From: Dehalococcoidia bacterium
GTDB lineage: Bacteria > Chloroflexota > Dehalococcoidia > UBA6926
Reading direction: 5' to 3'
Assembly: GCA_965220565.1 (NCBI GenBank)
Contig: CBDCQG010000001.1
Location: 462,030-526,029, forward strand
DNA length: 64,000 nt
Shown: positions 2,486 to 55,340 of the stretch, piece after piece
How positions within the stretch are numbered: the stretch's first letter is position 1
Layout of the letters: every line of letters begins with the position of its first letter
Notes under the pieces: generated by a model
Database searches by the model: none
What the model was told of the DNA's origin: nothing
Seen by the model: the letters and a program-made list of their open reading frames with translations, nothing else
Position numbers and translations under genes: made by a program

Positions 2486-2514
2486 CTGTCATTCTGAGCA
2501 CAGCGAAGAATCCC
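2486..2514. repeat. dispersed hairpin repeat, family 2 (GTCATTCTGAGCRCAGCGAAGAATC)
   Basis: near-identical copies at 44157-44185 and 55309-55340. Confidence 0.7.
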
Positions 2515-2555
2515 CCAACTCATACCATGTCGTGGCGCGATAGAATGAGCGCACG

Positions 2556-4499
2556 ATGAGTATTGATCTCGCCAAGGTCGCCCGCGGCCTGCCCACACAG
2601 CCCGGCGTCTACATCTTTCGTGACGCGCGCGGCAAGCCGATCTACGTCGGCAAGGCCGCCGTCCTCCGCAACCGCGTGCGTTCCTATTTCGGCTCGGACG
2701 CCCTGACGCCGGGAACCAAGGCATTCCAGATCGCTCAGCGCGCTTCCGACCTCGACTGCATCGTCACGACGACCGAGGCGGAGGCCCTGATCCTTGAGAA
2801 CACGCTCATCAAGCGCCACAAGCCGCGCTTCAACGTTCGCCTGAAAGACGACAAGACCTATCCCTATCTGAAGATCGACGTGCGTGAAGAATGGCCGCGC
2901 GTGTACATCACCCGGCGGATGCAGGACGACGGCGCTCGCTATTTCGGCCCGTACGCCAGCGCGTCGAGCGTCCGCAAGACCCTTGACCTGCTCAACAAGC
3001 TGTTCCCCTACCGCTCCTGCACCAAGGAGATTACGGGCACGGATCCGCGTCCGTGCCTTGATTACCACATCAAGCGCTGTCTCGGCCCCTGCATCGGCGC
3101 GGTATCCAACGAGGACTACCGCGAGGTCATCGGGCAGGTCTCCGCGTTCCTGGAGGGCAAGCAGGCCACCATCGCGAAGGACATCAAACGCAAGATGATG
3201 GACGCGTCCGACAGCCTTGAATATGAACGCGCAGCGTTCTTCCGCGACCAACTCAACGCCATCAACCGCGTCTCCGCTGAGCAGAAGGCCGTCTCCACGC
3301 ATGCCGTCGACGAGGACATCATCGCCATCGCCCGCGCCGGCAACGAGGCATGGGCGGAGGTGTTCTTCGTGCGCGGCGGACGGTTGCTGGAGCGCGACAA
3401 TTTCCTGCTGGACGGCACGCTCGGCGAAACGGACGGTGAGGTTCTTGCCGGGTTCATCAAGCAGTTCTACGTGAACAGCCCCGTCGTGCCGCCTCGTATC
3501 CTCACGCAGTCGCCCGTCGCGGACGGCCCTGCCATCACGGAATGGCTTGAGGAGCGACGAGAGGGCAGAAAAGTACGCCTCATCGTCCCGCAGCGCGGCG
3601 AACGCAAGAAGCTGCTGGAACTCGTTGCTGAAAACGCCCTGCAGGGCCTTGAGGCGCTGCGCATCAAAGTGCTCGCGGATGAGGCGGCGACGGAGACGGC
3701 GCTGGCGGAACTCAAGGAACAGCTCAACCTGCCGGAACTCCCGCGCCGCATTGAGTGCTACGACATATCCAACACGCAGGGAACGAACTCCGTCGCCTCC
3801 ATGGTTGTGTTCCAGGACGGGCAGCCGCTCAAGGACCACTACCGTCGTTTCAGGATAAAGACGGTGGAGGGCGCGAACGATTTCGCATCGCTGCAAGAGG
3901 TCATCCGGCGGCGATTCCGACGCTCCGGCGCGCTTGGCAGCGCCGCGCGCGGGCTTGCATCGACAGCCGAGGACGCCGAGGAGGTCATCGCGCAGTTCAA
4001 GTCGGCCCCGTCCCGCAGCAAGGACGAGCGTGATGCCAACAAGAAGGAAACGGCAGACGGCTCGTTCATGACGCTGCCTGACCTCGTGCTGATCGATGGC
4101 GGAAAAGGGCAGCTGAACGCCGTCGCTGAGGTGATGCGTGTTGAGCTGGGTCTTCACCAGATCCCGCTCGCGTCGTTGGCCAAGCAGGAGGAGGAGGTCT
4201 TCCTGCCGGAGATGGCGGAGTCGATCATGCTGCCGCGGACCTCGCCCGCCCTCTACCTTGTCCAGCGCGCCCGCGACGAGGCCCACCGCTTTGCCATCAC
4301 GTTCCATCGCGGCGTCCGCCAGAAGAAGGGGATGGAATCCATGCTGGACGCGGTGCCCGGCATCGGCCCGCGCCGCAAGCGCATGCTCATGCGCCACTTC
4401 GGCAGCCTTGACGCCATCCGTGAGGCTTCAATTGATGACTTGTCCGCCGCGCCTGGCATGACCAAACGCCTCGCCGAACGCGTCAAGGAATACGTGTAG
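2556..4499 (+). CDS. uvrC: excinuclease ABC subunit C
   Basis: 647 aa; N-terminal GIY-YIG motif (GVYIFRDARGKPIYVGKA...LRNRVRSYF), UvrC central and C-terminal HhH regions. Confidence 0.9.
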   Translation: MSIDLAKVARGLPTQPGVYIFRDARGKPIYVGKAAVLRNRVRSYFGSDALTPGTKAFQIAQRASDLDCIVTTTEAEALILENTLIKRHKPRFNVRLKDDKTYPYLKIDVREEWPRVYITRRMQDDGARYFGPYASASSVRKTLDLLNKLFPYRSCTKEITGTDPRPCLDYHIKRCLGPCIGAVSNEDYREVIGQVSAFLEGKQATIAKDIKRKMMDASDSLEYERAAFFRDQLNAINRVSAEQKAVSTHAVDEDIIAIARAGNEAWAEVFFVRGGRLLERDNFLLDGTLGETDGEVLAGFIKQFYVNSPVVPPRILTQSPVADGPAITEWLEERREGRKVRLIVPQRGERKKLLELVAENALQGLEALRIKVLADEAATETALAELKEQLNLPELPRRIECYDISNTQGTNSVASMVVFQDGQPLKDHYRRFRIKTVEGANDFASLQEVIRRRFRRSGALGSAARGLASTAEDAEEVIAQFKSAPSRSKDERDANKKETADGSFMTLPDLVLIDGGKGQLNAVAEVMRVELGLHQIPLASLAKQEEEVFLPEMAESIMLPRTSPALYLVQRARDEAHRFAITFHRGVRQKKGMESMLDAVPGIGPRRKRMLMRHFGSLDAIREASIDDLSAAPGMTKRLAERVKEYV

Positions 4500-4597
4500 A
4501 AGTCGTTCGCCCGCTCCTCTCCCTTTCCGTCCAGTACCGTATACTCAATGAGCGGCTGAGGATGGCCGCCACGTTCATTCCGGGGAGGGATTTCCAC

Positions 4598-5413
4598 ATG
4601 GCTGATTTTGAGACTGTTATCTACGAGGTTGGCGACGACGGAGTCGCGCAAGTCACCCTGAATCGACCGGAGCGCCGCAACGCGCTCAATCCGCAGTTGC
4701 TCCACGAACTCGAAGAAGTCTTCGATGCCGTTGAGAGCGACGACAATGTGCGCATCGCCGTTATCACGGGTGCAGGCCCCGCGTTCTGCGCGGGCTACGA
4801 CCTCACCCCGAACCAGGAGAGGCCGACCTATAGCGCGACGGAGCGCTGGGAGCACACCCATTGGCAGGCCATTCTCGTCTCGCGTCCGTGGTACTCCCGC
4901 GTGCCGTGGATCGCGGCGGTGGACGGTCCCGCGGCCGCGGCGGGCAATGTCCTCGCCATGAGCTGCGATCTTATTGTCGCCTCTGAGCGAGCGCAGTTCG
5001 GCGAACCGGAGATCCGCCATGTCGCGCACTCGCCCCACGTTCTGCTGCCGTTCATCACGAGCAATCGCCACCTGCGGGAGTTCTATTACACGGGTGATTT
5101 CATCGACGTGGAAACCGCTGAGAAGTGGGACCTGGTCAACAAGGTTGTTCCGGCGGGAGAGGCGCTCAACGAGGCGATGGCCATGGCGCGTCGCATCGCG
5201 CAGGTGCCGCCGTTCGCTCTCCAGATGATGAAGCGCTCCATCAACGCCGTCTATGACGCGCAGGGCTTCAAGAAGGGGCAGGACGAGCACCTCATGCTGC
5301 GCATGATTGAGTCGCTCACCCCTGACGTTCCCGAGCGTGAGCACCTCGGCAATGTGCGTGTTGAGCAGGGCATGAGAGCGTTCCTCGATGCGCGCGACGG
5401 CCCGTTCCGCTAG
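4598..5413 (+). CDS. enoyl-CoA hydratase/isomerase (crotonase) family protein
   Basis: ORF from 4562; ATG at 4598 preceded by GGAGGG; crotonase fold motifs (VITGAGPAFCAGYDL). Confidence 0.8.
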   Translation: MADFETVIYEVGDDGVAQVTLNRPERRNALNPQLLHELEEVFDAVESDDNVRIAVITGAGPAFCAGYDLTPNQERPTYSATERWEHTHWQAILVSRPWYSRVPWIAAVDGPAAAAGNVLAMSCDLIVASERAQFGEPEIRHVAHSPHVLLPFITSNRHLREFYYTGDFIDVETAEKWDLVNKVVPAGEALNEAMAMARRIAQVPPFALQMMKRSINAVYDAQGFKKGQDEHLMLRMIESLTPDVPEREHLGNVRVEQGMRAFLDARDGPFR

Positions 5414-5460
5414 GGCAGAGACGTAACCGGGACGAATTGGCTCGGTCGTGAGGCTGATGG

Positions 5461-7194: not shown

Positions 7195-8208
7195 ATGAAG
7201 GCACTCGTCTTTGATGAGTACGGCGGCCCGGAAGTCCTCCAGTGGAAGGACATTGATGACCCCAAGCCCGGGCCGAATGACGTCGTGATTGAGGTTAAGG
7301 CTACGGCCATCAACTACAACGATGTCTGGGGACGCCGCGGAGCACCTATGGAGGTGGCTCTGCCCCACATATCCGGCAGTGACGCATCCGGCATCGTCGT
7401 TGACAAGGGCGCCGAGGTCACGTCGCATTCCATCGGTGACGAGGTTGTCGTCCACTGCGGCCGCCCGGCTTTCAACAATCGCACCGGGCAGGAGTGCAAC
7501 ATCTGGGGCTATGACTGGCCCGCGCTCGATGGCGCGCACGGCCAGTATGTGAGAGTTCCGGCGGAGAACGCCGTTCCCAAGCCCACCAATCTCACGCATG
7601 AAGAGGCCGCTTCATTCCCGCTTGTTCTCGTCACCACGTGGCGCAAGCTGGTTGAGAAGTCCAACATCAAGCCCGGCGACCACGTCCTCATCTGGGGCGC
7701 TGCGGGCGGTCTGGGCGTCATGGCCATCCAGATTGCGAGGCTGTTCCGGGCGCATCCGATCGCCGTTGCTTCCAGCGATGAGAAGCTGGAACTGTGCAAG
7801 GATCTCGGCGCGGAGTACCTGATCAACCGCAAGACGCAAGATGTCCGGCAAGAGATGCGCAACATTGTGGGGCGGCGCGGCGCAGAGATCGTTTTTGAAC
7901 ACCCCGGCCAGGCCACCATGGGCCTCAGCGTCCAGCTCGCCAGTTGGGGCGGCACCGTGGTCACCAGTGGCGCAACCAGCGGCTACGACTCCAACATCGA
8001 CCTGCGGCACATCTTCTTCCGACAGGTCAAGCTGGTTGGGTCCACCCTGGGTACGGTCCACCAGCTGCAGGACGCGCTGGACCAGGTGCAGGCAGGTCAC
8101 ATCAAGCCGGTTATCGACCGCGTCCTGCCCATGAAGGATGCAGGCGAAGGTCAGACCCTGCTTGAGACCGAGGCCGTGGCGGGCAAGGTTGTGCTTGTTC
8201 CCAACTAG
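7195..8208 (+). CDS. zinc-binding MDR-family alcohol dehydrogenase / quinone oxidoreductase-like
   Basis: 337 aa; GroES-like N-domain and Rossmann GAAGGLG; AGGGAGGG SD. Confidence 0.8.
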   Translation: MKALVFDEYGGPEVLQWKDIDDPKPGPNDVVIEVKATAINYNDVWGRRGAPMEVALPHISGSDASGIVVDKGAEVTSHSIGDEVVVHCGRPAFNNRTGQECNIWGYDWPALDGAHGQYVRVPAENAVPKPTNLTHEEAASFPLVLVTTWRKLVEKSNIKPGDHVLIWGAAGGLGVMAIQIARLFRAHPIAVASSDEKLELCKDLGAEYLINRKTQDVRQEMRNIVGRRGAEIVFEHPGQATMGLSVQLASWGGTVVTSGATSGYDSNIDLRHIFFRQVKLVGSTLGTVHQLQDALDQVQAGHIKPVIDRVLPMKDAGEGQTLLETEAVAGKVVLVPN

Positions 8209-8231: not shown

Positions 8232-8262
8232 AGGGGCGCCCGCAAAGGGCGCCCCTTTCATT
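8232..8262 (+). terminator. rho-independent terminator
   Basis: perfect hairpin AGGGGCGCC-CGCAAA-GGGCGCCCCT followed by TTTCATTTCC directly after MDR gene stop. Confidence 0.6.
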
Positions 8263-9078: not shown

Positions 9079-9126
9079 CCAAACTTGGTTCAAAACAAAT
9101 TTTAGGTTTCGTTTTGAATTTGGTGG
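9079..9126. promoter_or_regulatory. AT-rich imperfect palindrome (candidate operator) overlapping predicted transcription start
   Basis: CCAAACTTGGTTCAAAAC ... GTTTTGAATTTGGTGG; core arms TTCAAAAC (9089-9096) / GTTTTGAA (9111-9118). Confidence 0.4.
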
Positions 9127-9198
9127 CCCGGAGGGGCCAAAGCGCGGGATACGGGAGCGGTTGAGATAGTGGGCTGCGGCCCAAAGAGGAGTGGTGTC

Positions 9199-9969
9199 AT
9201 GCCATGGACGCATGCGGGCGTAAGCAGACGCCTGAAGTTGCTCGGCGTGCTGGGAATCGTTGGTGGACTGCTGTTGGCCTCCATTACCGTCGCCCTGGCG
9301 CAAGAAGCCCCGGCGGGCGAAGAGAACAGCGTTTCCGCAAGTTTTGAATATGACTCAGGGATCAACCTGAACATCCCGGGATCATTCTTCCCCGGCTTTG
9401 ATGCAGCGGGGTCCCTGATGATTCAGCCTCGCGCGCTGCAAGTGGACGGCAATGAGATGCCGGCGGCCTCCATCACGATTGAGCCGCTTCAGCTGGAAGA
9501 AAGCCAGACGATGCCCACGCTGATTGCGCCCAATCCGAGCAAGCCAAGCGGCAGCACGGCAGAGTACCTGCACCGCGCCGTTTCCGTGTCTGTCAGCATT
9601 GACGGCCAGGATGCGAGCGAAACGGCCCGCTTCAACCCCACCATGATGCTCAATCTGGACCTGACGGATGCCGAATGGGAAGAGGCGGACAATGACCCGG
9701 ATGCGTTCGTCGTTCGCGCTTGGGATGCCGGCAGGAATATGTGGTTGACCGTTGAAACATCCACGAACCCGTTCGATATGGTCGTGACGGCCAAGGTCGC
9801 CCGGGCCGGCCAGTTCGCCCTGTTCAGGGAGGAGCCGCCGCCGCCCATCCAGGGTGGAGACGTTTCACTGAGTTCCATGACCCTGCTGTTCATCGCCATG
9901 CTTGGATTCGCCCTGGCCGGTACCGGCGTCATGCTGGCGCGCGGCACGTTGGGTCGGCGCTCCCGCTAG
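9199..9969 (+). CDS. secreted/anchored hypothetical protein (N-terminal signal peptide, C-terminal TM helix plus basic tail)
   Basis: AGAGGAG SD before ATG 9199; LKLLGVLGIVGGLLLASITVALAQEAP signal-like; C-terminus LLFIAMLGFALAGTGVMLARGTLGRRSR. Confidence 0.55.
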   Translation: MPWTHAGVSRRLKLLGVLGIVGGLLLASITVALAQEAPAGEENSVSASFEYDSGINLNIPGSFFPGFDAAGSLMIQPRALQVDGNEMPAASITIEPLQLEESQTMPTLIAPNPSKPSGSTAEYLHRAVSVSVSIDGQDASETARFNPTMMLNLDLTDAEWEEADNDPDAFVVRAWDAGRNMWLTVETSTNPFDMVVTAKVARAGQFALFREEPPPPIQGGDVSLSSMTLLFIAMLGFALAGTGVMLARGTLGRRSR

Positions 9970-9990
9970 ATTCAGACACGCACGGACTCA

Positions 9991-10035
9991 CGGGGCGCGG
10001 TGGGCCGGGCAGGCCCTCCACGCCCCGTTCCGTTA
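9991..10035 (+). terminator. GC-rich stem-loop, weak terminator candidate
   Basis: CGGGGCG...CGCCCCG stem enclosing GGGCC/GGCCC inner pairing, followed by TTCCGTTATTG. Confidence 0.3.
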
Positions 10036-10498: not shown

Positions 10499-10508
10499 CT
10501 CCCGCCGC

Positions 10509-10547
10509 TCATCCTGAGCCTGTCGAAGGGCATGAGCGCCCTCACAC
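10509..10547. repeat. dispersed hairpin repeat, family 3 (CTGAGCCTGTCGAAGGGC core)
   Basis: second copy at 43395-43430; shares CTGAGC...GAAG architecture with family 2. Confidence 0.6.
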
Positions 10548-16090: not shown

Positions 16091-16112
16091 GTCTTTTCAC
16101 CATTGATGTAGA

Positions 16113-16191
16113 TGGCGTCCCCGGTGGGACTCGAACCCACAACCTGCGGATTAGAAGTCCGCTGCTCTGTCCGGTTGAGCTACAGGGACGC
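16113..16191 (-). tRNA. tRNA-Arg (anticodon TCT)
   Basis: reverse complement gives GCGTCCCTGTAGCTCAACCGGACAGAGCAGCGGACTTCTAATCCGCAGGTTGTGGGTTCGAGTCCCACCGGGGACGCCA; 7-nt anticodon loop CTTCTAA; CCA encoded. Confidence 0.85.
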
Positions 16192-16299
16192 GCTGAGGTC
16201 GCGGCATCCCATCCATGATAGCGCCGCGAATCTACGGGCGAAGCCGTGTGTGTTTCGCAGCCTGTCGGTAAAGGACCAGGTCGCGGCAGCCTTGCGCTC

Positions 16300-16842: not shown

Positions 16843-16909
16843 CGCACTTTCGAGTATGGGAACCGCGCCAAACAGGGTCAAGAAAGACGACGCGATTTGA
16901 TACAGCTAT

Positions 16910-17406: not shown

Positions 17407-17469
17407 CACAGTGCCCCTTAGCTCTGCATCAAGTATACGCCGCTTACTTGCGTCCGCTATGCTTTTACT

Positions 17470-24810: not shown

Positions 24811-24835
24811 CTCCTACCTTCTCACCCGTCATTCC

Positions 24836-24877
24836 CACCCATCAACCGTCATTCCCGCGAAAGCGGGAATCTGAATC
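24836..24877. repeat. dispersed hairpin repeat, family 1 (GTCATTCCCGCGAAAGCGGGAATC), with partial upstream half-copy
   Basis: perfect 8-bp stem ATTCCCGC/GCGGGAAT with GAAA loop; copies at 44211-44240, 49001-49030, 53781-53871, 36523-36549 (inverted), 37421-37452 (variant). Confidence 0.7.
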
Positions 24878-25659: not shown

Positions 25660-25790
25660 CCCGTACCACCTCATTCCGGCGACGGCCGGAATCCAGCCGG
25701 TCTGCCCAAAAGACACACGCAATTATACGCGTCGGGTCTATCCATCTGAGCCGCGAATCTGAAACAATCTGAAAACAAGGAGAATCACAT

Positions 25791-35759: not shown

Positions 35760-36545
35760 ATGTCCCGCTCTCTGAAGATCTTCACCCTCTTCGGCACCCC
35801 GGTACGGGTCAATTACACGTGGCCCATCGCCCCCATATTCATCACCATCGTCCTTGGCACGGTGCTTGTTGAAGACCTGGAATTCTCAGGAGGTCTCGCC
35901 CTCAGTTACGGGTTTAGCGCAATCATTGCCCTCAGCCTCACCGCCGCTATCCTGCTGCACGAATTCGCTCACGTCCTGGTCGCCCGCCGATTCGGCATCC
36001 GCGCGTCCGCCATCACCCTGTTCGCCCTGGGCGGAGTCTCTCACATCGACGATGAGCAGAAAGGCCCCGGCAGTGACCTGGCCATCTCCATCGCCGGCCC
36101 GCTGGCGAGCATTGTGCTTGGAGTCGCCTCGTACCTTGCCTCGGTACTTTTGACCGCCCCGTTCGCGGTCGCCTGCCAGGATGTTTACTCCGAATCGCTC
36201 GCGTGTGCCTCAGGCCCTTCGCTGCTCGGCCTCCCGTTTTACTACCTCGCCATCGCCAACATCATCATCGGGGTCTTCAACCTGCTGCCCCTGTTTCCCC
36301 TCGACGGCGGCCGCATCCTCAGCGCCATCCTTTGGGCAATAACGAACAACCGGCAGCGGGGGGTCAGGATCGCATCACTGGTGGGCCAACTCGGCGCGGG
36401 CGCGATGATCATCTACGGCGCCCATAACCTCTTCTTTGGCGAGCTGCTCGTCGGCGTCTGGCTCATCGCCATCGGCGTCTTCCTCATGGAAGCCGCGGTG
36501 GGGGCTGCGCCAGGCCGTGCTGGATTCCCGCTTTCGCGGGAATGA
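35760..36545 (+). CDS. M50-family (site-2 protease-like) membrane metallopeptidase
   Basis: 261 aa; HEFAHVLVARRFG (HExxH) and NLLPLFPLDGGR motifs; C-terminal codons run into a family-1 repeat. Confidence 0.8.
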   Translation: MSRSLKIFTLFGTPVRVNYTWPIAPIFITIVLGTVLVEDLEFSGGLALSYGFSAIIALSLTAAILLHEFAHVLVARRFGIRASAITLFALGGVSHIDDEQKGPGSDLAISIAGPLASIVLGVASYLASVLLTAPFAVACQDVYSESLACASGPSLLGLPFYYLAIANIIIGVFNLLPLFPLDGGRILSAILWAITNNRQRGVRIASLVGQLGAGAMIIYGAHNLFFGELLVGVWLIAIGVFLMEAAVGAAPGRAGFPLSRE

Positions 36546-36549
36546 CGGG
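36523..36549. repeat. dispersed hairpin repeat, family 1 (inverted orientation)
   Basis: GATTCCCGCTTTCGCGGGAATGACGGG. Confidence 0.65.
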
Positions 36550-36553
36550 AATT

Positions 36554-37267: not shown

Positions 37268-37420
37268 GTGCACCTCCTCACAGCCCCCTCTGAGGTGTCT
37301 TGACTCTCACGGGCAGGATGGCCAGTTACCACTTGGGGCCAGCACTTTTTGTGTCAGTTTACCATCGCCCTCTTTTCTTGCTTTTGTGACAAGCTCCCGT
37401 CATACACCCAGCCCTCATTC

Positions 37421-37452
37421 CGGCGAAAGCCGGAATCCATCATCCCCGTCTA
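37421..37452. repeat. dispersed hairpin repeat, family 1 variant (CATTCCGGCGAAAGCCGGAATC)
   Basis: same architecture with CCGGC/GCCGG stem. Confidence 0.55.
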
Positions 37453-40651: not shown

Positions 40652-40669
40652 CCCGCCGGGAGCAATCCG

Positions 40670-43349: not shown

Positions 43350-43372
43350 ACGCCACCCAGGGGAGGAGACTA

Positions 43373-44140: not shown

Positions 44141-44156
44141 CGGCATTTCGCTTTGT

Positions 44157-44185
44157 GTTGTCATTCTGAGCGCAGCGAAGAATCC
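44157..44185. repeat. dispersed hairpin repeat, family 2
   Basis: GTTGTCATTCTGAGCGCAGCGAAGAATCC. Confidence 0.7.
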
Positions 44186-44210
44186 AAAGACACGGAAGTA
44201 GAATCAACAC

Positions 44211-44240
44211 GTCATTCCCGCGAAAGCGGGAATCTGAATC
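44211..44240. repeat. dispersed hairpin repeat, family 1
   Basis: GTCATTCCCGCGAAAGCGGGAATCTGAATC directly abutting ATG of next gene. Confidence 0.7.
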
Positions 44241-45113: not shown

Positions 45114-45198
45114 TCCGACTCGCAGAGAGTAGGCCCGTGAAACAGCTCCTGTTTCGAGATAGCGTGTCGGATGCTCTGCAATCTGCTATAAAGGTGAC

Positions 45199-46110: not shown

Positions 46111-46116
46111 ACAGGT

Positions 46117-48206: not shown

Positions 48207-48209
48207 CAG

Positions 48210-48971
48210 ATGATCACCGTCTTTTCGCTCACCCTCCGCCAACTCACCGGCACGCGCCGGCAGGTCATTCTGTGGCTCTTTGCGCTCCTGCCGTTGGCTT
48301 TCGCCATCCTCATCCGTTACCTCACGGATGATTACGTTGACGTGATCCTCGGGCCTGCTATGAGTCTGCTCCTCATTCCTGTTGTCCTGCCCCTCGTTGT
48401 TGCAATCCTTGCGACAACCGCGCTTGGCGAGGACGTGGAAGACCGTACGCTGTCCTACATCGTCCTGAGACCCGTCCCCCGTTGGCAGATCATTGCGGCC
48501 AAGTATGCTGCGGTCGTCATTCTCGCCGCCGTCCCGCTGCTTCTGCTGGGCGCGGCAACCGCCGCCGTGGCATTCATCGGCGACCTCAACGGTGAATCGG
48601 CCTTCGATTATGAGAGCGTCGTCAAACCAATCATCGGAATCGTTGCGGGCCTGGCCATCGGTGTCCTCGCCTATGCGGCCGCCTTTATGTGGCTCGGCCT
48701 GATCTCCGGGCAAGCACTCGGTATCGCCATCGTCTACGTCTTCGTCTGGGAGGGCGTTGCCGCCGGCATCTTTGGAGGCATTAGGTACCTGAGTGTTCGG
48801 AGTTATAGCATCACCACCATGAAAGAGATTGGCGGAGACTCGCTTGACCTGGTCGGCGCTATCGCCGGCTCGGAGATTGCCCTTAATGTTGCGCTCGGCA
48901 GCGCAGCAGCCGTCGTCGTCGCCTTCCTTGCCCTCACCCTCATCCAACTCCGCAACATGGACGTCCCCTGA
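48210..48971 (+). CDS. ABC-2 type transporter permease
   Basis: 253 aa, 6 hydrophobic segments. Confidence 0.65.
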   Translation: MITVFSLTLRQLTGTRRQVILWLFALLPLAFAILIRYLTDDYVDVILGPAMSLLLIPVVLPLVVAILATTALGEDVEDRTLSYIVLRPVPRWQIIAAKYAAVVILAAVPLLLLGAATAAVAFIGDLNGESAFDYESVVKPIIGIVAGLAIGVLAYAAAFMWLGLISGQALGIAIVYVFVWEGVAAGIFGGIRYLSVRSYSITTMKEIGGDSLDLVGAIAGSEIALNVALGSAAAVVVAFLALTLIQLRNMDVP

Positions 48972-49000
48972 ACCCAACCTGACATTTCCGCCCCGTGCCC

Positions 49001-49030
49001 GTCATTCCCGCGAAAGCGGGAATCTTGATC
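49001..49030. repeat. dispersed hairpin repeat, family 1
   Basis: GTCATTCCCGCGAAAGCGGGAATCTTGATC. Confidence 0.7.
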
Positions 49031-49130
49031 TACATGTCTCAGCCAAGTCTCACTTTGCCCGTGTGCCAACCGCTAACCCCTGATTTCCCCTATCATTCCC
49101 CTATAGAAATCTACCCAATCGGAGTTCCAT

Positions 49131-50492
49131 ATGCCTTTCGACACACTCATCCGCGGCGGCGACGTTGTCCTGCCGTACAGCGGAGTTCACCGCCTCGATC
49201 TCGCCATCACGGACGGGCGCATTGCTGCCCACCTCGGCCCGAACACTGACGTAGACGCCAATGAGGTCATCGACGCCGCCGGCAAGGTCATCCTCCCCGG
49301 CGTCATCGATCCCCACACGCACCTCAACCTCGGTGATGCCGAGACCGCCTTTGAGACCGAAACACGCGCCGCCGCCCTCCACGGCATCACCACCCTTATC
49401 CACTTCCTCATGTCCAACGACCCGTATGAGGCCGAGTACAAGCAATACCGCGAGTGGGGCGACTCCCAGAGCCTGATTGACTACGCTCTCCATGCGATTA
49501 TCTCGACCCGGGACCAACTGGCGGAGGTCGACAGGTATATCGACGAATTCGGCATCGGCAGCTTCAAGTTCTTCATGAGCTTCCGCGGCGAGGAGGGCGC
49601 CTACATTGGCCTGCCGCCAATCGATGACGGCCTGATGTACGAGCTGCTGGAGAAACTCGGCCAGCGCCCCGGTACCGTCCTCTGCGTCCACACGGAGAAC
49701 ATCGAGGTCGTCTGGTCGATCCGAAAACGTCTCGAAGAATCGGGCCGTGACGACCTCAAGGCGTGGCATGAGTCGCGTCCGCCGTTCACGGAGGCGGAGG
49801 CCGCCGTCCGCGTCATGCTCTTTGGGCGTGAAACCGGCTCCACGCCATACATCGTTCATACAACGTCGGCGGATACTCTCGCAGCCGCCCGCGCATTCCG
49901 TCGCGACGGCGGCAGCATCTACATCGAGACGTGCCCGCACTACCTCTCCCACACGTATGAATCCCTGGTCGGTACCTTCGGCAAGCAGAACCCGCCCCTT
50001 CGCAGCCCTGAGGACCAGGACGCGTTGTGGGAGGCCATCGCCGACGGCACGGTCGACACCATGGGTTCAGACCACGCCGCCCGGTTGGGCGACCGCAAAC
50101 AGGGCACGATCTGGAGCGCGTCGCCCGGCCAGCCCAACATGCCCATGCTCTTGCCCGTCATGCTCAATGATGGCGTCCTCGCTCGCGGACTCCCGCTTGA
50201 GCGTGTGGCGGAGGTGACGTCCGCCAATGTCGCGCGCATATTTGGCATGTGGCCGCAGAAGGGTTCTCTGCAAGTCGGCGCGGATGCCGACATCGCCATC
50301 GTTGATATGGACGAGACCCGAACCGTCACCGCGGCGGGCCTGCAGGGCCGCGCCGACTACTCCATCTATGAGGGCATGTCCTACACCGGCTGGCCCGTCC
50401 GCACCCTCGTCCGCGGAAAAACAATCACTGAAAACGGCAAAGTTGTAGCATCTGGGGGTGACGGTCGGTATATTTATCGTTCAGTGGGGTAG
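49131..50492 (+). CDS. cyclic amidohydrolase (dihydropyrimidinase/hydantoinase/allantoinase family)
   Basis: 453 aa; metal-binding VIDPHTHLN, carbamylated-Lys region, HTENIEV... Confidence 0.8.
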   Translation: MPFDTLIRGGDVVLPYSGVHRLDLAITDGRIAAHLGPNTDVDANEVIDAAGKVILPGVIDPHTHLNLGDAETAFETETRAAALHGITTLIHFLMSNDPYEAEYKQYREWGDSQSLIDYALHAIISTRDQLAEVDRYIDEFGIGSFKFFMSFRGEEGAYIGLPPIDDGLMYELLEKLGQRPGTVLCVHTENIEVVWSIRKRLEESGRDDLKAWHESRPPFTEAEAAVRVMLFGRETGSTPYIVHTTSADTLAAARAFRRDGGSIYIETCPHYLSHTYESLVGTFGKQNPPLRSPEDQDALWEAIADGTVDTMGSDHAARLGDRKQGTIWSASPGQPNMPMLLPVMLNDGVLARGLPLERVAEVTSANVARIFGMWPQKGSLQVGADADIAIVDMDETRTVTAAGLQGRADYSIYEGMSYTGWPVRTLVRGKTITENGKVVASGGDGRYIYRSVG

Positions 50493-50521
50493 GCCGACGA
50501 ATCCGGCCAAAGGGGGCGCTC

Positions 50522-52933
50522 ATGTCAGGTCCACTGTCGCATCTGCGAGTTGTCGATGTTACCGCATCGCTTGCCGGAGCCTACGCCGCCCGCCTCCTCG
50601 GTGAGTTGGGCGCGGACGTTGATCGCGTCCGCCGCATGAGGGATCTCTATGTCCGCCTCAAGGGACGGGAGATGCCGGAGTGGGATCCGCTCCTGCATCG
50701 CTCCCTCAACGCCAACAAGTCTCACCGCTCTGACACCGACGCCGAGACTGTCACGCCCGAATCCCTTTTGGCCGCGTTGGACGGACAGAATGTCCTTGTT
50801 GAGGACGTTGGGATGTTCGACGGCGATAAGCCCTTCCTTGATTGGGATGCCGTTCACGCTCGCTACCCTCATCTGTCCGTCGTTTCTCTGACACCCTATG
50901 GCAAGGACGCTCCATTGGCCGATCTGCCGCCAAGCGACCTCGCAACGTGGGCGCTCTGCGGCATGGCGTGGACAACCCCGGGCCCGCCCGACACCACCTT
51001 TGATCTCCCTGAAGAGCCCCCGCTCATGCCCACCGGCGCGTCCGTTCCCTCGCTCATGGCCGGGGCGGTCAGCGTCGTGGGAACACTCGCCACGTTGTAT
51101 GCCGACTCCGGCAGCGGCAACGGCACGGGGCCGGGAGTGACCGGCACGCGCATCGAGATCTCTGAACTGGAGGCCATCACCGCCCTCAACTACCATCCCG
51201 TCACACAGCGCGAATACCTGGAATACGTGCTTGACCGCGGCCCCAACATCCTTGCGCGGCAGCCGAACTGCTACATCCCATGCAAGGACGGCTACATCGT
51301 CATCGTCGCCATGAGCCCCCGCCACTGGGAGCAGTTCGCGGAGGTCATGGGCAGCCCGAAGTGGGCATACACCGAGGACTTTGACGACGGCACGAAGCGC
51401 GCCATGAACTGGGACGCCGTCAGCGTGCTCATGACCAACTGGACGATGGAGCACACTGGCGAGGAGATCACCACTCAACTGCAGGCCCGGAACATTCCCG
51501 CGTTCTGGGCAACCTCTCTTGAGGAGGTCATAACCCACGAACACGTCAAGGCGCGGCGCTACATCCGCCACGTAAAGGCACAGGACGGACAGGAGATCCC
51601 GTTCACCGGCGCGCCGTTCATCCTCACCGGCTACCCGCGGAACGAGGACGGCAAGCCGGAAGCCGATGGCTCTGTCCCCGCACCAACGTCTGTGAACGGC
51701 GCTGCTGCGTCGCACATGGGCTCAACGCCCAGTCTCCCGCTTGCGGGCCTCCGCGTCGTTGATTTCGGTCAGTACATCGCGATCCCGTACTGCGCCAAGT
51801 GGCTCGCCGCCCTCGGCGCGGACGTGATCCAGGTGGAAAGCCGTGAGAATCCCGCCGATTTCCGCAACTCCCCGCCGTTCGCCGGTCAGATTCCGGGCAT
51901 GAACCGCGCAGGCGCGTACAACACCCTCAGCATGGGCAAGCGCGCCATCCCCATCAACCTCCGCACCGAAGAGGGCAGGGACGTTGCCCGCCGACTGTGC
52001 GCGACGGCCGACATCGTGCTCGAGAACTTCTCAACCGGCCTGATGGAGCGATGGGGGCTTGGCTACAGCGACATCGCGCCGCTCAACCCGCGCGTCATCT
52101 ACACGTCCGTCGCCGCGTTCGGCAGGAGTGGCCCGCTCAAGGACTACAGCGGCCTCCACAGCATCATCAACGCCTTCTGCGGCCTCGCGGACGTTACCGG
52201 ATATACGGACGGCCACCGCCGGCTGCTCGGCTCCTACTTCCCGGATGTCGTGTCCGCTACCTACGCCACCATGGCCACGCTGACGGCCCTCCACGACCGC
52301 AAGCGCACCGGCATGGGACATCACGTCGACGTCGCGATGACCGAGGCCCTGATGACGCTCATCACGGAACCGATGGTCGCTCGCGCCATCGGCAGCTACG
52401 AACCCGTCCGCGACGGCTCGCATCACCCGTTCCATGCGCCGCACAACGTCTATGCAACGAGCGGCGATGACCAATGGATCGCCATTACGGCCCGGACCGA
52501 CGCCGAATGGGCCGGCCTGTGCGGCATCATTGATGGCCTTGCCAACGATGATCGTTTTGCCACACCTGAATCCCGCAAGCAGAACGAGGCCGCGCTGGAT
52601 GAGATCATCGCGGCATGGGCGGCATCGCGTGACAAGTACGAGACGGCCGACCAACTGGCCGGCGCGGGCGTGTCCGCCGCCCCGATCCTCGACCCGCTTG
52701 AAGTTGTCGAGCACCCGCATCAGCGGGCGCGCGGCTTCTTCGCCACGATTGACCACCCGGAGGCCGGTCCACGCCGAACGGCCAAAGTGCCCTGGCAGGT
52801 GAACGGCGAGTACGCGGGTGAACTGCGCCGCGCCCCTATGCTCAATGAGCACACGGACGCCATCCTCACCGAGATCCTCGGCATCGGCCAGCAAGAGACG
52901 CAGGAACTGGTAGCCGCCGACGCCCTGAGATAA
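50522..52933 (+). CDS. fused tandem CoA-transferase family III protein (two CaiB/BaiF-like domains)
   Basis: 803 aa; domain 1 LSHLRVVDVTASLAGAYAARLLGELGADVDRV; domain 2 LAGLRVVDFGQYIAIPYCAKWLAALGADVIQVE. Confidence 0.75.
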   Translation: MSGPLSHLRVVDVTASLAGAYAARLLGELGADVDRVRRMRDLYVRLKGREMPEWDPLLHRSLNANKSHRSDTDAETVTPESLLAALDGQNVLVEDVGMFDGDKPFLDWDAVHARYPHLSVVSLTPYGKDAPLADLPPSDLATWALCGMAWTTPGPPDTTFDLPEEPPLMPTGASVPSLMAGAVSVVGTLATLYADSGSGNGTGPGVTGTRIEISELEAITALNYHPVTQREYLEYVLDRGPNILARQPNCYIPCKDGYIVIVAMSPRHWEQFAEVMGSPKWAYTEDFDDGTKRAMNWDAVSVLMTNWTMEHTGEEITTQLQARNIPAFWATSLEEVITHEHVKARRYIRHVKAQDGQEIPFTGAPFILTGYPRNEDGKPEADGSVPAPTSVNGAAASHMGSTPSLPLAGLRVVDFGQYIAIPYCAKWLAALGADVIQVESRENPADFRNSPPFAGQIPGMNRAGAYNTLSMGKRAIPINLRTEEGRDVARRLCATADIVLENFSTGLMERWGLGYSDIAPLNPRVIYTSVAAFGRSGPLKDYSGLHSIINAFCGLADVTGYTDGHRRLLGSYFPDVVSATYATMATLTALHDRKRTGMGHHVDVAMTEALMTLITEPMVARAIGSYEPVRDGSHHPFHAPHNVYATSGDDQWIAITARTDAEWAGLCGIIDGLANDDRFATPESRKQNEAALDEIIAAWAASRDKYETADQLAGAGVSAAPILDPLEVVEHPHQRARGFFATIDHPEAGPRRTAKVPWQVNGEYAGELRRAPMLNEHTDAILTEILGIGQQETQELVAADALR

Positions 52934-52965
52934 GGGGAACGCCAACTGGCACAGGGGCCGATCAG

Positions 52966-53775
52966 ATGACAACCCTCATCGGCGTAGACTTCAGTGGGTC
53001 GCAGGCCGACAACGCCACGTGGATCGCAATGGCCACCGTTGGTGACGATGGCGGCATCGATTGGCAAACCCCGTTCCCCATCCGCCGCGCCGATCTTGAA
53101 CAACTGCTGCTGACCATTGAGGGCCCCGCTGTCGCCGCGCTGGATTTCCCCTTCGGACTGCCGGTTGACTTTGCCGTCACGCAAGGTTTCATCAGGTGGG
53201 GCGAGGGCCAGATGGACTCCTGCGACCGCACGGCGCAGATTTCCCAGGCCGAATTCGAGCAGGTTGCGCGGGAGTATGTTGCCGCGTATGGGGAACCCCG
53301 CCGCGCCAGCGACGCAGCGCCCGCCTTCTCACCCCTCCACACCACCAACCCCAACATGGTTCCCATGACTTACCACGGCATGAGGATGCTTGGCCGCATC
53401 CTCGCTCGTGCCCAGGGCCGATTCCACATCCCGCCCATCCCCGCCAATGCCGCAAATTGGGACGTGACTCTCGTGGAGTTGATGCCGGGCCAGCTGCTGC
53501 GTGCCAGGGGCGACTCGGGCGTCGGCTACAAGAACGGCGACAACAACCTCCAACGCCGCCACCAGATCCTCTCAATCGTTGAAGAGTGGATCGGGACAGA
53601 ACTCCCTGAGCACGTTCGCCTCGCGTGCCGTGCCAACCACGATTGCCTCGATGCCGTCGTGAACCTGGCGGGCGCGCTCCAATGGCATCGCGACCCCGGC
53701 GCTTTCGACCATCCCGATGATGTCCAACGAGGCTTCGCCCACGACGAAGGCTGGCTCTACACCCTCCGCCCTTAA
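52966..53775 (+). CDS. DUF429-domain protein (RNase H-like fold)
   Basis: 269 aa; N-terminal LIGVDFSGS characteristic of DUF429. Confidence 0.6.
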   Translation: MTTLIGVDFSGSQADNATWIAMATVGDDGGIDWQTPFPIRRADLEQLLLTIEGPAVAALDFPFGLPVDFAVTQGFIRWGEGQMDSCDRTAQISQAEFEQVAREYVAAYGEPRRASDAAPAFSPLHTTNPNMVPMTYHGMRMLGRILARAQGRFHIPPIPANAANWDVTLVELMPGQLLRARGDSGVGYKNGDNNLQRRHQILSIVEEWIGTELPEHVRLACRANHDCLDAVVNLAGALQWHRDPGAFDHPDDVQRGFAHDEGWLYTLRP

Positions 53776-53780
53776 CCCTC

Positions 53781-53871
53781 CCGTCATTCCCGCTGTACTC
53801 CGCCATTCCCATACACACGCCGTCATTCCCGCCCCCCTCCGTCATTCCCGCGAAAGCGGGAATCTGAATCA
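53781..53871. repeat. tandem cluster of family-1 repeat half-copies plus one full copy
   Basis: CGTCATTCCCGC x3 partial, then GTCATTCCCGCGAAAGCGGGAATCTGAATC. Confidence 0.7.
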
Positions 53872-53964
53872 CATTCCGCCTTCCCACATACCCAAACAGG
53901 GGGTTGACAGGCTCAGAGAGTCCTCTATGATATAGAACATTAGTTCCATACAAGGAGGCCCGCC

Positions 53965-55304
53965 ATGCTCATCAAAAGCACTCCGGACGTCTACGAGAAG
54001 CTCCGCCACCTTGGCGGAATGGCCACCGATGATATCCTCTCGCCGGCCGAGCGGTCGGACGGGATCACGCGGCCGGGTGTTGGCGGGGAACGCGTGGGCC
54101 CGCGAGGCGGTGCAACTCCTCATGCCGGCGTCTACAAGGCCGCCATGCCGAACGGCAAACGCATTTCATTGATGCGCGTGATGTTCACCGATCACTGCAT
54201 CATGGACTGCCACTACTGCCCCAACTCCCACTGGGTCCCGCGCAGGCGCTACGGGTTCAAGGTGGATGAACTCGCGCGGCTGTTCAATGAGATGCACCAG
54301 CGCCACATGGTTGACGGACTCTTCCTCAGCTCCGGGATCTTCAAGAATCCCAACGCCACGCAGGAGCGCCTGCTCGATGTGGTGGACGCGGTCCGCTCTC
54401 GCTACGGATTCCGCGGCTATGTTCACCTGAAAGTGATGCCCGGCACGAATGACGACTCGCTCCTGGAAGCCAGCCAGCGGCTCGGCGCGCGCCTCTCCAT
54501 CAATATCGAGTCGCCGTCGCCGAACACCTCCGCAAAGTCAGCAAGATGAAGGACTTTGACAAGGGCATCATCGACCCGATGGGGCGCATCAGCGACCTCA
54601 TGCAGGAGAAGTACGGCGGCGCGGTCGGCCAGGCCACGCAGATGGTCGTCGGCGCGGCGGATGAGTCGGACTGGGACATCTACAACCGGATGACGAGCCT
54701 CTACGGAAACTACGGGTTCAAGCGCGTCTACTACTCGGCGTTCCGCCCCGTCAGGTACACGCCACTGGAGGAGCACCCCGCAACGCCGCCCGCGCGGGAG
54801 CATCGCCTCTACCAGATGGATTGGCTGTCGCGCATCTACGGCTACGACTCCGAGGAATTGCGCCCCGCCTTCAGCGACGAGGGCTTTCTTGACACGCGCA
54901 CCGACCCGAAGCTCATGATCGCGATGACCAATTTCGAGCGCTTTCCGGTGGACGTAAATCAGGCGACCGAACAGGAACTGCTGCGTGTCCCCGGTGTCGG
55001 TCCGTTGGCGGCCAGCCGCATCATCGGGCAGCGGCGCGAGCACTCAATCACACAGACCAGGGAACTCAAGGCGATGGGTGTGGTGATGAAGCGCGCGCTT
55101 CCGTTCCTGCGCTTCCCGGGCCACAAACCCAGCCCCGCCAAGCAAGCTGAGATGCCCCTCTTCCAGGAGCAGCCCGCGTCTCCCCTCATCTCGGCGAAAG
55201 CCGGAACCCGGCCATCCAGACGCACGATGGAACTGCACAACGCGTCGGCGGCCAACTGCTCCACGTGCCCCCTCAACCCCGGCACCTGCGGCATGGCAGC
55301 GTAA
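53965..55304 (+). pseudogene. putative DNA modification/repair radical SAM protein (TIGR03916-like) interrupted by a frameshift
   Basis: ORF 53965..54549 has CIMDCHYC radical-SAM cluster motif and stops mid-domain; ORF 54546..55304 in another frame continues the core (QMVVGAADESDWD) and ends with HhH (LLRVPGVGPLAASRI); frames switch within 54500-54548. Confidence 0.55.
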
Positions 55305-55308
55305 CAAG

Positions 55309-55340
55309 GATGTCATTCTGAGCGCAGCGAAGAATCTGAC
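55309..55340. repeat. dispersed hairpin repeat, family 2
   Basis: GATGTCATTCTGAGCGCAGCGAAGAATCTGAC. Confidence 0.7.

Follow-up and report, generated by a model that had tools for sequence, protein, structure and literature searches.

Dispersed hairpin repeats in a Dehalococcoidia genome are local copies of the Neisseria dRS3/NTS, CGTC-REP and Ssn-related class

What are the short hairpin-forming repeats scattered through this stretch of a Dehalococcoidia (Chloroflexota) MAG, and what maintains them? Within the window, by which we mean the whole 64,000 nt analysed, a first-pass annotation had listed 11 copies in three families and likened them to REP or MITE elements. We found all 11 copies, with 0 chance matches expected for each family in 100 shuffles. 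A covariance model trained on elements of the window and its relatives gave 10 matches above 31 bits, the next best scoring 16.7 bits, and added one overlooked copy at 25669-25693. Together with two Family 3 copies, these matches bring the full hairpin elements to 12. Most of the original coordinates held, but the variant with a CCGGC stem lies at 37413-37437 rather than 37421-37452, the fourth plus-strand Family 1 copy starts at 53841 rather than 53842, and the Family 2 cores shift slightly to 2488-2512, 44160-44184 and 55312-55336. The elements, with partial and decayed units, are as follows.

2487..2512, + strand: Family 2, TGTCATTCTGAGCACAGCGAAGAATC, TGTC head; 37 bits; 43 nt upstream of the uvrC start
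10505..10538, + strand: Family 3 with extended stem, CCGCTCATCCTGAGCCTGTCGAAGGGCATGAGCG; right past the dUTPase stop, between convergent genes
24828..24838, + strand: head-only half unit, GTCATTCCCAC; 20 nt upstream of the Family 1 copy at 24847
24847..24877, + strand: Family 1 (NTS-type), CGTCATTCCCGCGAAAGCGGGAATC plus TGAATC; 39.4 bits; between coaBC and coaX (both - strand), antisense to both
25669..25693, + strand: CCTC-headed variant, CCTCATTCCGGCGACGGCCGGAATC, the additional copy; 31.4 bits; 11 nt upstream of the likely coaX start, antisense
36520..36547, - strand: Family 1, the sole minus-strand element, CGTCATTCCCGCGAAAGCGGGAATCCAG; perfect match to the 28-nt NTS consensus
37413..37437, + strand: CCTC-headed variant with compensated stem, CCTCATTCCGGCGAAAGCCGGAATC; 35.5 bits
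43399..43419, + strand: Family 3 core, TCGCCCTGAGCCTGTCGAAGG; in the N-terminal coding region of an isochorismatase-family gene (start ATG 43373)
44159..44184, + strand: Family 2; 36.6 bits; head-to-tail with the Family 1 copy at 44210
44210..44240, + strand: Family 1 plus TGAATC; touches the ATG (44241) of a PEP-mutase-family gene
48981..48991, + strand: degenerate head-only unit, GACATTTCCGC; 20 nt upstream of the Family 1 copy at 49000
49000..49027, + strand: Family 1; 29 nt past an ABC-2 permease stop; fits the published SRM search pattern
53783..53832, + strand: head-only array of three units with C-rich spacers, GTCATTCCCGC at 53783, GCCATTCCC at 53802 and GTCATTCCCGC at 53822; spacing 19-20 nt
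53840..53870, + strand: Family 1 plus TGAATC; closes the 3' end of the head-only array
55311..55336, + strand: Family 2; covariance-model match; 7 nt past the stop of the gene at 54546-55304
60017..60040, + strand: possible decayed copy; 15.5 bits, E 0.04; C-rich leader, GTCATTC and GAATC kept, inner stem gone

Each full element is an oriented hairpin: its base, (C/T)(G/C)TC-ATTC ... GAAT-C, is invariant, its inner stem varies in sequence yet stays paired, and its loop is short. Head-only units, corresponding to the 5' half, lie in tandem arrays on the 5' side of full copies, repeating every 19-20 nt. The loci are independent, as had been proposed, rather than parts of one duplicated segment: the longest unit common to copies is ~54 nt, and no larger duplication includes them. 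The peptides VIPAKAGI and RHSRESGNL, earlier called spurious translations of the repeats, do derive from them.

All families had been described as folding into hairpins. Folded as ssDNA, Family 1 and its variant did so strongly (-9 kcal/mol, z ~ -4.5) and Family 3 moderately (-7 to -7.7, z ~ -2), but Family 2 was indistinguishable from shuffles (-1.9, z 0), its stem requiring two tandem G.A mismatches. In the class with invariant GTCATTC...GAATC, a helix gains support from compensatory changes in the inner stem. We counted 32 two-sided cells versus 12.4 in shuffles, a comparison biased upward by pre-selection of the sequences for pairing, and pairing reached 88.5% versus at most 45% in slid controls. 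The outer 4 bp were invariant, and a C followed the palindrome in 67 of 71 elements. The hairpins are also directional, with the covariance model scoring 39 bits on the forward strand versus 12 bits on the reverse strand at the same sites.

Sequence identity places the repeats in a known class. Five Family 1 copies have at most one mismatch to the 28-nt NTS consensus CGTCATTCCCGCGMAVGCGGGAATCYRG (PMC11893778), one being perfect, and share 100% identity over 24 nt; the Family 1 25-mer has an identical copy in N. gonorrhoeae. Its palindrome is ATTCCC-N8-GGGAAT, flanked by GTC on the 5' side and C on the 3' side. In Neisseria, the 94-aa GIY-YIG nuclease SsnA binds the NTS hairpin exclusively as ssDNA and in its forward-strand form, and the nick falls a few nucleotides to the hairpin's 5' side. 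Cutting depends on the GTC that precedes the palindrome, and binding on the C immediately past it (PMC11893778). Both of these critical features are nearly invariant here. The published SRM search pattern finds only 2 of the 12 elements, and Families 2 and 3 fall outside it. Families 1-3 are local copies of a described class of bacterial DNA hairpins comprising Neisseria dRS3/NTS, CGTC-tagged REPs and Ssn-related motifs. The earlier view that the three families are related is borne out in that all are Ssn-related motifs, and calling them REP-like dispersed hairpin repeats was correct in kind, Family 1 being the CGTC-1 REP, or dRS3, or NTS.

In other organisms, all three types sit beside GIY-YIG genes. 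Hairpins of the Family 1 type adjoin SsnA homologues from three hosts, N. gonorrhoeae, Aeromonas and Azospirillum; beside SsnA-clade genes, Planktothrix has the Family 2 type and Spirosoma a variant related to it. The Family 3 core CTGAGC..CGAAG adjoins a sister GIY-YIG clade at 8 of 8 loci examined, and the Family 3-type sequence CTGAGCCTGTCGAAG is identical at three GIY-YIG loci. A profile HMM that recovered 360 of 360 control GIY-YIG proteins detected no small GIY-YIG (ssn) gene in the 64-kb window, in 24 comparison loci or in 35 viral loci (best E 0.63).

Orientation was strongly biased, with 11 of 12 full elements on the plus strand. Most copies lie between co-directional plus-strand genes, just past stops or touching starts, in agreement with the intergenic placement first reported. 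One exception is the copy at 43399 within a coding region, and another, reported from 36523, supplies the final 7 codons and TGA stop (36543-36545) of an M50 peptidase ORF. The plus-strand copies at 24847 and 25669 are antisense to their minus-strand neighbors (the true coaX start is likely the minus-strand ATG at 25659), and therefore orientation tracks the DNA strand rather than transcription.

We compared the window with 24 loci (L001-L024), most from Dehalococcoidia and all matched on one amidohydrolase gene; because these loci are syntenic, they are not independent samples of the genome. In species-level relatives (~85-90% nucleotide identity), orthologous intergenic spots were empty, filled or occupied by a different family, and in some relatives the element made up the entire 31-nt spacer between two genes. 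Filled sites carried a trailer with purine-rich, Shine-Dalgarno-like stretches ahead of the next ATG. Loop variants were more similar within a genome (0.68) than between genomes (0.36; permutation p ~0.003). The Family 3 core at 43399 is a clean 21-nt in-frame insertion at the middle of a pre-existing ccgc|gcgg palindrome, missing from 8 related genomes, and this single clean filled/empty comparison showed no target-site duplication. Relatives also had 0.9-1.4 kb insertions with extra genes at the same intergenic spots, several directly after a hairpin, as in L004 and L022 (NucS-like gene), L010, L013, L014 and L015. The recombination-hotspot role suggested at first is a possible one, and it fits this turnover and these cassettes.

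Taken as a whole, the explanation we consider probable is that the repeats are non-autonomous Ssn-related motifs recognized in trans by an Ssn-type nuclease encoded elsewhere. Copies without their own nuclease gene would be dispersed in short intergenic spacers and recognized by at least one such enzyme from elsewhere in the genome, and an SsnA-clade enzyme would act on Families 1 and 2, one from the sister clade on Family 3. Hairpins may be gained, lost, exchanged and homogenized via ssDNA intermediates, and they would act chiefly as marks of ssDNA cleavage sites, which become hotspots for indels and insertions. We infer that an Ssn enzyme is present and active in the Dehalococcoidia host genome and drives repeat spread. 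No demonstrated mechanism is known, in any organism, by which Ssn would copy hairpins to new sites.

Could the hairpins instead act at the RNA level, with sense-transcribed 3' or intercistronic copies shielding mRNA from exonucleases or adjusting how the following gene is translated, roles that have been proposed for classical REPs? Their placement between co-directional genes, the spacers consisting wholly of an element and the Shine-Dalgarno-like trailers all favor this, as do RNA folds of -13.6 kcal/mol for Family 1, with a GAAA tetraloop, and -14 kcal/mol for Family 3. Nonetheless, we regard it as unlikely. Two copies are antisense to the flanking genes, Family 2 is weak as RNA (-4.6 kcal/mol, z -0.4), Rfam holds no family matching these elements, and SsnA does not bind the RNA form of NTS (PMC11893778). 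Action as RNA would also leave unexplained why sequences are identical across phyla and why the unpaired GTC and C are so strictly conserved. The initial suggestion of terminators fails, since no T-run follows any copy and none scored terminator-like, so they are not intrinsic terminators; a stabilizing role for sense-oriented copies is possible.

Somewhat less plausible again is that the copies are decaying, neutral leftovers of a once-active Ssn-hairpin element whose partner enzyme has gone from the genome. The lack of ssn in the window and syntenic loci would agree with this, as would the decayed copy at 60017 and the head-only halves, and an earlier survey considered it possible that CGTC families have no enzyme of their own and are dying out (PMC3733652). 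However, five Family 1 copies remain identical over 24 nt and two Family 2 copies over 25 nt, when the surrounding genomes differ by 10-15%. The greater likeness of copies within genomes and the variable occupancy among related species also argue against relics, and in a published survey 81% of genomes with >200 SRMs encoded an Ssn homologue (PMC11893778).

Less plausible still is a chief role as attachment sites or targets, used by a site-specific recombinase, a filamentous phage or an IS110-type transposase in the way that Neisseria Nf/MDA prophages use dRS3. This would account for the accessory cassettes adjoining hairpins, and dRS3 is a reported phage-recombinase target (PMC11893778). Yet no IS110, Piv or phage integrase gene adjoins any copy in the window, where a XerC/D-like gene (268-1212) is the sole tyrosine recombinase, and most copies have no neighboring cassette. 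Such use is compatible with the Ssn explanation and leaves hairpin multiplication unexplained.

Classical REPs or MITEs moved by a RAYT or IS200/IS605-type enzyme, the kind of partner the first-pass annotation advised looking for, are very improbable despite the short, GC-rich, intergenic, many-copy appearance and the use of ssDNA hairpins by IS200/IS605 enzymes: the heads are CGTC, TGTC or CCTC rather than the GTAG that defines RAYT-linked REPs, the window has no Y1 transposase, CGTC repeats were not seen to flank tyrosine-transposase genes in a survey (PMC3733652), the demonstrated partner is the GIY-YIG nuclease Ssn (PMC11893778), all three hairpin types adjoin GIY-YIG genes elsewhere, and the elements, just 24-36 nt long, have neither separate terminal inverted repeats nor, at the one clean comparison, a target-site duplication.

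Recognition by an Ssn-type nuclease can be set beside known systems. GTAG REPs and BIMEs with RAYT, and IS200/IS605 ends, are likewise short intergenic hairpins that a small nuclease or transposase recognizes in ssDNA form, and in these as in Ssn systems the enzyme gene is flanked by its own hairpins while many copies are gene-less. They differ in head (GTAG versus CGTC) and enzyme fold (HUH/Y1 versus GIY-YIG), and IS200/IS605 elements are demonstrated to transpose and RAYT systems proposed to, but neither applies to Ssn.

CGTC-tagged REPs, which include Rickettsia RPE-4 and RPE-6 and, as CGTC-1, dRS3, were found in five phyla, not including Chloroflexi, in the survey of Di Nocera et al. 2013 (PMC3733652). 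The elements here broadly fit their definition (a CGTC, TGTC or CCTC head, an 8-9 bp stem opening with AT, a 3-4 nt loop and a short tail), a likeness judged by that definition rather than by the tandem G.A core seen in Families 2 and 3. Several families per genome and some intragenic copies, here the 21-nt in-frame insertion, are common to both. CGTC REPs are mainly head-to-head dimers with negligible head-to-tail arrangement (PMC3733652), whereas the copies here are head-to-tail or single, and co-oriented.

The closest system is Neisseria NTS/dRS3 with SsnA (Chenal et al. 2025, PMC11893778). Family 1 has the same sequence, palindrome, oriented flanks and intergenic placement, and Families 2 and 3 are alike in architecture, with similar hairpins adjoining Ssn-type genes in other phyla. 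The host here differs, being a Dehalococcoidia MAG with 64 kb free of ssn, and three families coexist and swap at the same sites. Orientation is mixed around N. gonorrhoeae ssnA, whereas here nearly all copies are co-oriented. The class is already known, and what is unusual is its single-strand bias and head-only tandem arrays in a Dehalococcoidia genome.

The short hairpin repeats described by the first-pass annotation are real: every copy that it claimed was recovered by pattern search, where none were expected from shuffled sequences, although some of its positions were off by 1-8 nt. The pattern matches numbered six for Family 1 (the CCGGC-stem variant included), three for Family 2 and two for Family 3. 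A loose frame of GTCATTC-N(6-22)-GAATC matched 10 times in the window against 0.21 expected. We also built a covariance model, which had been suggested as a check, from 27 distinct GTCATTC...GAATC sequences of the window and its relatives; it returned 10 window matches scoring 31-39 bits, and no other site exceeded 16.7 bits. The tenth match, absent from the earlier annotation, lies antisense, 11 nt upstream of what is probably the true start of coaX. With two Family 3 copies, these matches make 12 full elements, 11 of them on the + strand.

Full hairpin elements in the window
24851, 44214, 49004 and 53844 (+ strand) and 36524 (- strand): Family 1, GTCATTC...GAATC base, exact match to the palindrome ATTCCC-N8-GGGAAT
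25669-25693, + strand: Family 1 variant with CCTC head and CCGG stem, tenth covariance-model match
37413-37437, + strand: second Family 1 variant with CCTC head and CCGG stem
2487, 44159 and 55311, + strand: Family 2, TGTC-headed hairpin with tandem G.A stem
10505 and 43399, + strand: Family 3, hairpin with CTGAGC..CGAAG core

The longest unit shared between these loci is ~54 nt and their flanks are unrelated, so the loci are independent rather than parts of one larger duplicated segment. Related genomes hold 0-8 full copies per ~21 kb, compared with 12 per 64 kb here, which would imply a few hundred per 1.9-Mb genome if density is uniform. A candidate degenerate copy of the CCTC variant at 55184-55210 (CCTCATCTCGGCGAAAGCCGGAACCCG, 78% identical to the reference), inside the C-terminal region of the gene at 54546-55304, was not recovered by the covariance model. 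Outside the repeat families, a strong 10-bp GC-rich hairpin at 8232-8256 (AGGGGCGCCC-GCAAA-GGGCGCCCCT), just past the gene at 7195-8208, may be a terminator-like structure.

The host region is 62% G+C and its genes are ordinary chromosomal ones, including uvrC, dUTPase, coaBC, coaX, valS, 23S rRNA, NADH dehydrogenase subunits and ABC transporters. By a protein-based scan it belongs to Dehalococcoidia MAGs whose chromosomes measure ~1.9 Mb. The complete 23S rRNA gene (32512-35505) has no 16S upstream and no 5S called downstream, and is followed by tRNA-Met (35672-35746); since it stands alone, the rRNA genes are unlinked. A stretch of lower GC (36550-38450, ~0.57-0.59) adjoins the place where the - strand Family 1 copy and the + strand variant stand head-to-head. 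Within this stretch are a DUF2277 gene, ~630 nt of non-coding gap containing small ORFs, and an ORF of 328 aa (37463-38449) without a Pfam match; it may have been acquired as an island.

When the repeat sequence was searched against the literature, an identical 25-mer, CGTCATTCCCGCGAAAGCGGGAATC, turned up in a Neisseria gonorrhoeae construct. The 28-nt Neisseria Transformation Sequence (NTS), CGTCATTCCCGCGMAVGCGGGAATCYRG, contains the dRS3 palindrome ATTCCC-N8-GGGAAT and is bound by SsnA, a 94-aa GIY-YIG protein (cd10448) that recognizes it as forward-strand ssDNA only and cuts a few nt upstream; the C directly 3' of the palindrome is critical for binding and the three bases 5' of it for cutting (Chenal et al. 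2025, PMC11893778). In the same work, ssnA homologues of many phyla were flanked by similar Ssn-related motifs (SRMs). The same elements had earlier been classed as CGTC-tagged REPs, with Neisseria CGTC-1 corresponding to dRS3 (Di Nocera et al. 2013, PMC3733652). These have a head that is often TGTC or CCTC, a stem of 8-9 bp starting with AT, a loop of 4-5 nt and a short tail; they occur in five phyla, Chloroflexi not among them, and no associated transposase was found (PMC3733652).

In the window, the 20-bp palindrome has five exact matches, all in Family 1, and is lacking from both CCGG-stem variants. Under the search criterion of PMC11893778, at most one mismatch to the 28-nt NTS, five Family 1 copies match the consensus, and the one at 36520-36547 (-) is perfect. 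Heads are TGTC in Family 2, CCTC in the Family 1 variant and CCG(C/T)TC-type in Family 3. Family 1 has an 8-bp stem and a 4-nt loop, whereas the Family 2 stem spans 9 positions and its loop 3 nt. Apart from the head type of Family 3, the elements broadly conform to the CGTC-REP definition of head, stem, loop and tail. Among 71 elements from the window and relatives, GTC/CTC is preceded by C in 46 cases and by T in 25, 67 tails open with C, and ATTC/GAAT is essentially invariant. Conservation of the residues reported as critical makes these elements candidates for forward-strand ssDNA binding and cutting by an Ssn-type nuclease. The original description as REP-like was right in kind, in that the elements belong to the dRS3/NTS, CGTC-REP or SRM class, but their lineage, Dehalococcoidia, is not reported for such elements in either source paper (PMC11893778, PMC3733652).

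The inner stems carry compensatory changes (CCCGCG/CGCGGG, CCGGCG/CGCCGG, CTGGCC/GGCCAG and CCGAGC/GCGAGG). Cells changed on both sides numbered 32 versus 12.4 in shuffles, in a sequence set pre-filtered for pairing. When folded as ssDNA, Family 1 reached -9 kcal/mol (z -4.6) and Family 3 reached -7 to -7.7 (z ~-2). The Family 2 stem depends on tandem G.A pairs, and its fold therefore came to only -1.9 (z 0). Values for RNA folding ranked similarly.

Other readings of the repeats were not supported. The elements had been likened to MITEs, but each is a single 24-36 nt hairpin without terminal inverted repeats, and the Family 3 insertion at 43399 lacks a target-site duplication. A role as terminators had also been proposed; none of the seven elements (of twelve in the window) in the scanned interval 43000-56000 was called terminator-like, and the bases 3' of the elements (TGAATC, CAG, CCA and similar) form a T-tract in no case. 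Nor is a REP-associated tyrosine transposase (RAYT) supported as partner: the GTAG head is absent, as is any Y1 transposase domain among ~60 window proteins; the window holds no transposase, RAYT or IS110 element. Rfam returned no match for the elements. The claim that the repeats generate spurious small ORFs was borne out, as they account for the ubiquitous peptides VIPAKAGI, SFPRKRES and RHSRESGN.

We next considered whether the three families are linked to GIY-YIG nucleases. The published SRM pattern, HGTCWYN(0-2)YYVSBRHN(0-5)WNVSBRGN(0-2)RNCYNB, is a hand-made search tool and not a functional definition. Only 2 of the 12 elements passed it (36520- and 49000+, versus ~0.7 expected by chance), and Families 2 and 3 never did. 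Therefore, we tested association with GIY-YIG genes directly. A first consensus query returned the UPF0213/YazA subfamily, whose HMM was too narrow for a fair test. A second retrieved a Bacteroidota-type subfamily whose genes are associated with tRNA genes and with GTCCCG...CGGGAAG hairpins rather than with the GTCATTC families. In metagenome loci (L115-L194, e.g., L117 2914-3322, L124, L128, L132 and L136), an intact tRNA gene (Arg-ACG, Ala, Ile, Asp or Gly) ends ~10 nt before the start of such a Bacteroidota-type gene. Beyond the gene, the 3' part of the tRNA recurs as a degenerate second copy, with the GTCCCG...CGGGAAG hairpin in place of the anticodon arm. This looks like a GIY-YIG unit targeting tRNA genes.

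The SsnA clade was reached only via tblastn on a plasmid collection that includes some chromosomes and chromids, and the matches included the N. gonorrhoeae homologue. Hairpins of the Family 1 type flank the SsnA-clade gene in N. gonorrhoeae, Aeromonas and Azospirillum (L205, L208 and L195). The gene of Planktothrix agardhii (L206) is flanked by TGTCATTCTGAGTGAAACGAAGAATC, which has the Family 2 architecture, and that of Spirosoma (L207) by GTCATCCCGAGGAACGAGGGATC, a related tandem-G.A variant. A sister GIY-YIG clade (motif MAFYxYILxCSDGSYYTGHT...ERxIKGWSRAKK) has, in all eight loci examined (L196 and L198-L204), hairpins at its gene that carry the Family 3 core, CTGAGC..CGAAG. Several of these hairpins read CCGTTCGYCCTGAGCYTGTCGAAGGRCGA, and the window 15-mer CTGAGCCTGTCGAAG is identical in three of the loci. 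In the usual layout there, one forward copy precedes the start by a short distance, and a reverse copy lies at the stop or overlaps it. Family 2 combines the base of Family 1 (GTCATTC/GAATC) with the core of Family 3 (CTGAGC...CGAAG). Because each type flanks GIY-YIG genes elsewhere, all three families represent hairpin types linked to Ssn-type nucleases.

The nuclease gene itself was sought in the window and relatives. Regular expressions for GIY-YIG motifs found no matches in six-frame translations, and HMMs were used instead. An HMM of six SsnA-clade proteins, which recovered 360 of 360 control small GIY-YIG proteins, detected no small ssn-type gene in the window or in L001-L114 (best E 0.63); UvrC is the only GIY-YIG domain in the window. 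No GIY-YIG gene lay nearby in 35 viral contigs carrying exact Family 2, and a scan of viral contigs with the Family 3-linked clade gave no matches. A partner nuclease would, by inference, be encoded elsewhere in the genome. The window also encodes, at 14656-15726 (-), a 356-aa protein with a weak NucS_C (PD-(D/E)XK nuclease) domain, in a lower-GC stretch near tRNA-Arg (16113-16189). One relative (L004) has a 1.3-kb cassette directly 3' of a hairpin with a gene 25% identical to this protein, and L022 has a similar-looking cassette. A NucS-like partner was dropped given that the window gene is only this distantly similar to the hairpin-side cassettes.

The elements are biased in strand: 11 of the 12 window elements share one orientation (+), as do 68 of the 71 from window and relatives combined. 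Adjacent copies run head-to-tail, as at 44159 and 44210. This bias follows the DNA strand and not transcription, because two + strand copies sit among - strand genes. By comparison, orientations around the N. gonorrhoeae ssnA gene are mixed, and CGTC REPs are predominantly head-to-head dimers in the literature (PMC3733652), a predominance not seen here. GC skew on the + strand is negative across the window whatever the gene orientation, except over rRNA, while ~70% of coding sequence and the 23S rRNA lie on the + strand. By its negative skew, + would be the lagging strand. Skew and gene placement, from which replication direction is usually read, thus disagree, and linking strand bias to replication direction failed on this conflict within a 64-kb window.

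Just 5' of full copies we found tandem arrays, with a period of 19-20 nt, of head-only units, each corresponding to the 5' half of an element and consisting of GTCATTCCCGC plus a C-rich spacer of 8-9 nt.

Head-only units in the window
53783, 53802 and 53822, + strand: three units preceding the full copy at 53841
24828, + strand: further unit
48981, + strand: further unit

In one relative the units number four. Downstream of the Planktothrix ssn gene, three GTCATTCTGAG units with a period of 23 nt show this architecture as well, and it also adjoins, with a similar period, a Family 3-linked GIY-YIG gene (L200). Neither source paper mentions these arrays (PMC11893778, PMC3733652). Stems put together from two separate halves are also cut by SsnA (PMC11893778), so each head-only unit could pair with the single 3' half, which would offer further places to cut. 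Conceivably, repeated rounds of cut-and-repair or template switching left the arrays as footprints. Just 3' of the array at 53783, and not part of it, is a near-consensus sigma-70-type promoter (53904-53931, TTGACA-16-TATGAT, 11/12) upstream of a radical-SAM gene; it is kept in several relatives.

Comparison with the related Dehalococcoidia loci among L001-L024, the closest of which are ~85-90% nucleotide-identical to the window, revealed turnover. The same intergenic spots are empty, filled or occupied by another family depending on the species, and the spacer 3' of the DUF429 gene holds Family 1, 2, 3 or combinations by genome. Very fast turnover, read from the 98% amino-acid match of L001, was rejected; nucleotide identity there is only ~87%, so turnover is at species-level divergence. 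Loop variants (GAAA, GAAG and GCAG) were more alike within a genome (0.68) than between genomes (0.36; p ~0.003), which suggests homogenization, with shared ancestry contributing too. Several relatives have 0.9-1.2 kb insertions with extra small genes (L010, L013, L014 and L015 at ~16100-18100; L013 and L022 at ~9100-10000), reverse-oriented ORFs resembling toxin-antitoxin pairs. The same spots hold hairpins in the window, suggesting shared insertion hotspots.

The elements can also alter real genes, by in-frame insertion, by replacing a C-terminus and stop codon, and by loss of a start codon. At 43399, the Family 3 copy forms a clean in-frame insertion of 21 nt (7 codons), TCRCCCTGAGCCTGTCGAAGG, within the part of an isochorismatase-family gene that encodes the N-terminal region; it lies at the centre of a ccgc|gcgg palindrome and is absent in eight relatives. 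The inverted Family 1 copy at 36523 supplies the last seven codons and stop of an M50 peptidase ORF. At 40651-40676, the window lacks a Family 1 unit seen in four relatives together with the first 11 nt of the downstream gene, such that the stop of a NuoF-like gene is fused directly to codon 4-5 of a nucleoside hydrolase gene. In relatives, the junction is either a plain TAG-ctcc-ATG or holds a Family 1 unit of 53-63 nt plus a ATGCCCACCAA start. The window arrangement resembles the outcome of an imprecise deletion at an element site, with the annotated start codon lost.

Experimental work on the Ssn/NTS hairpin system has so far covered Neisseria species and Wolbachia; these results extend it to a Chloroflexota lineage that is free-living, and show that two hairpin types outside the published pattern (CTGAGC...CGAAG cores with tandem G.A mismatches) also pair with GIY-YIG nuclease clades. 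The one-strand bias regardless of gene direction, the fixed-period head-only arrays and the family swaps at the same sites are undescribed in both source papers. The strand bias, the head-only arrays and the association of Families 2 and 3 with GIY-YIG clades add modestly to what is known; the first two offer concrete handles on how the repeats multiply. It is conceivable, but in our judgment rather unlikely, that the hairpins here are products of strand-specific, replication-coupled copying driven by Ssn-type GIY-YIG nucleases, making them a true mobile system of a new mechanistic type. Were this copying reading true, an Ssn nuclease and its hairpin would be the GIY-YIG counterpart of the RAYT/REP system.
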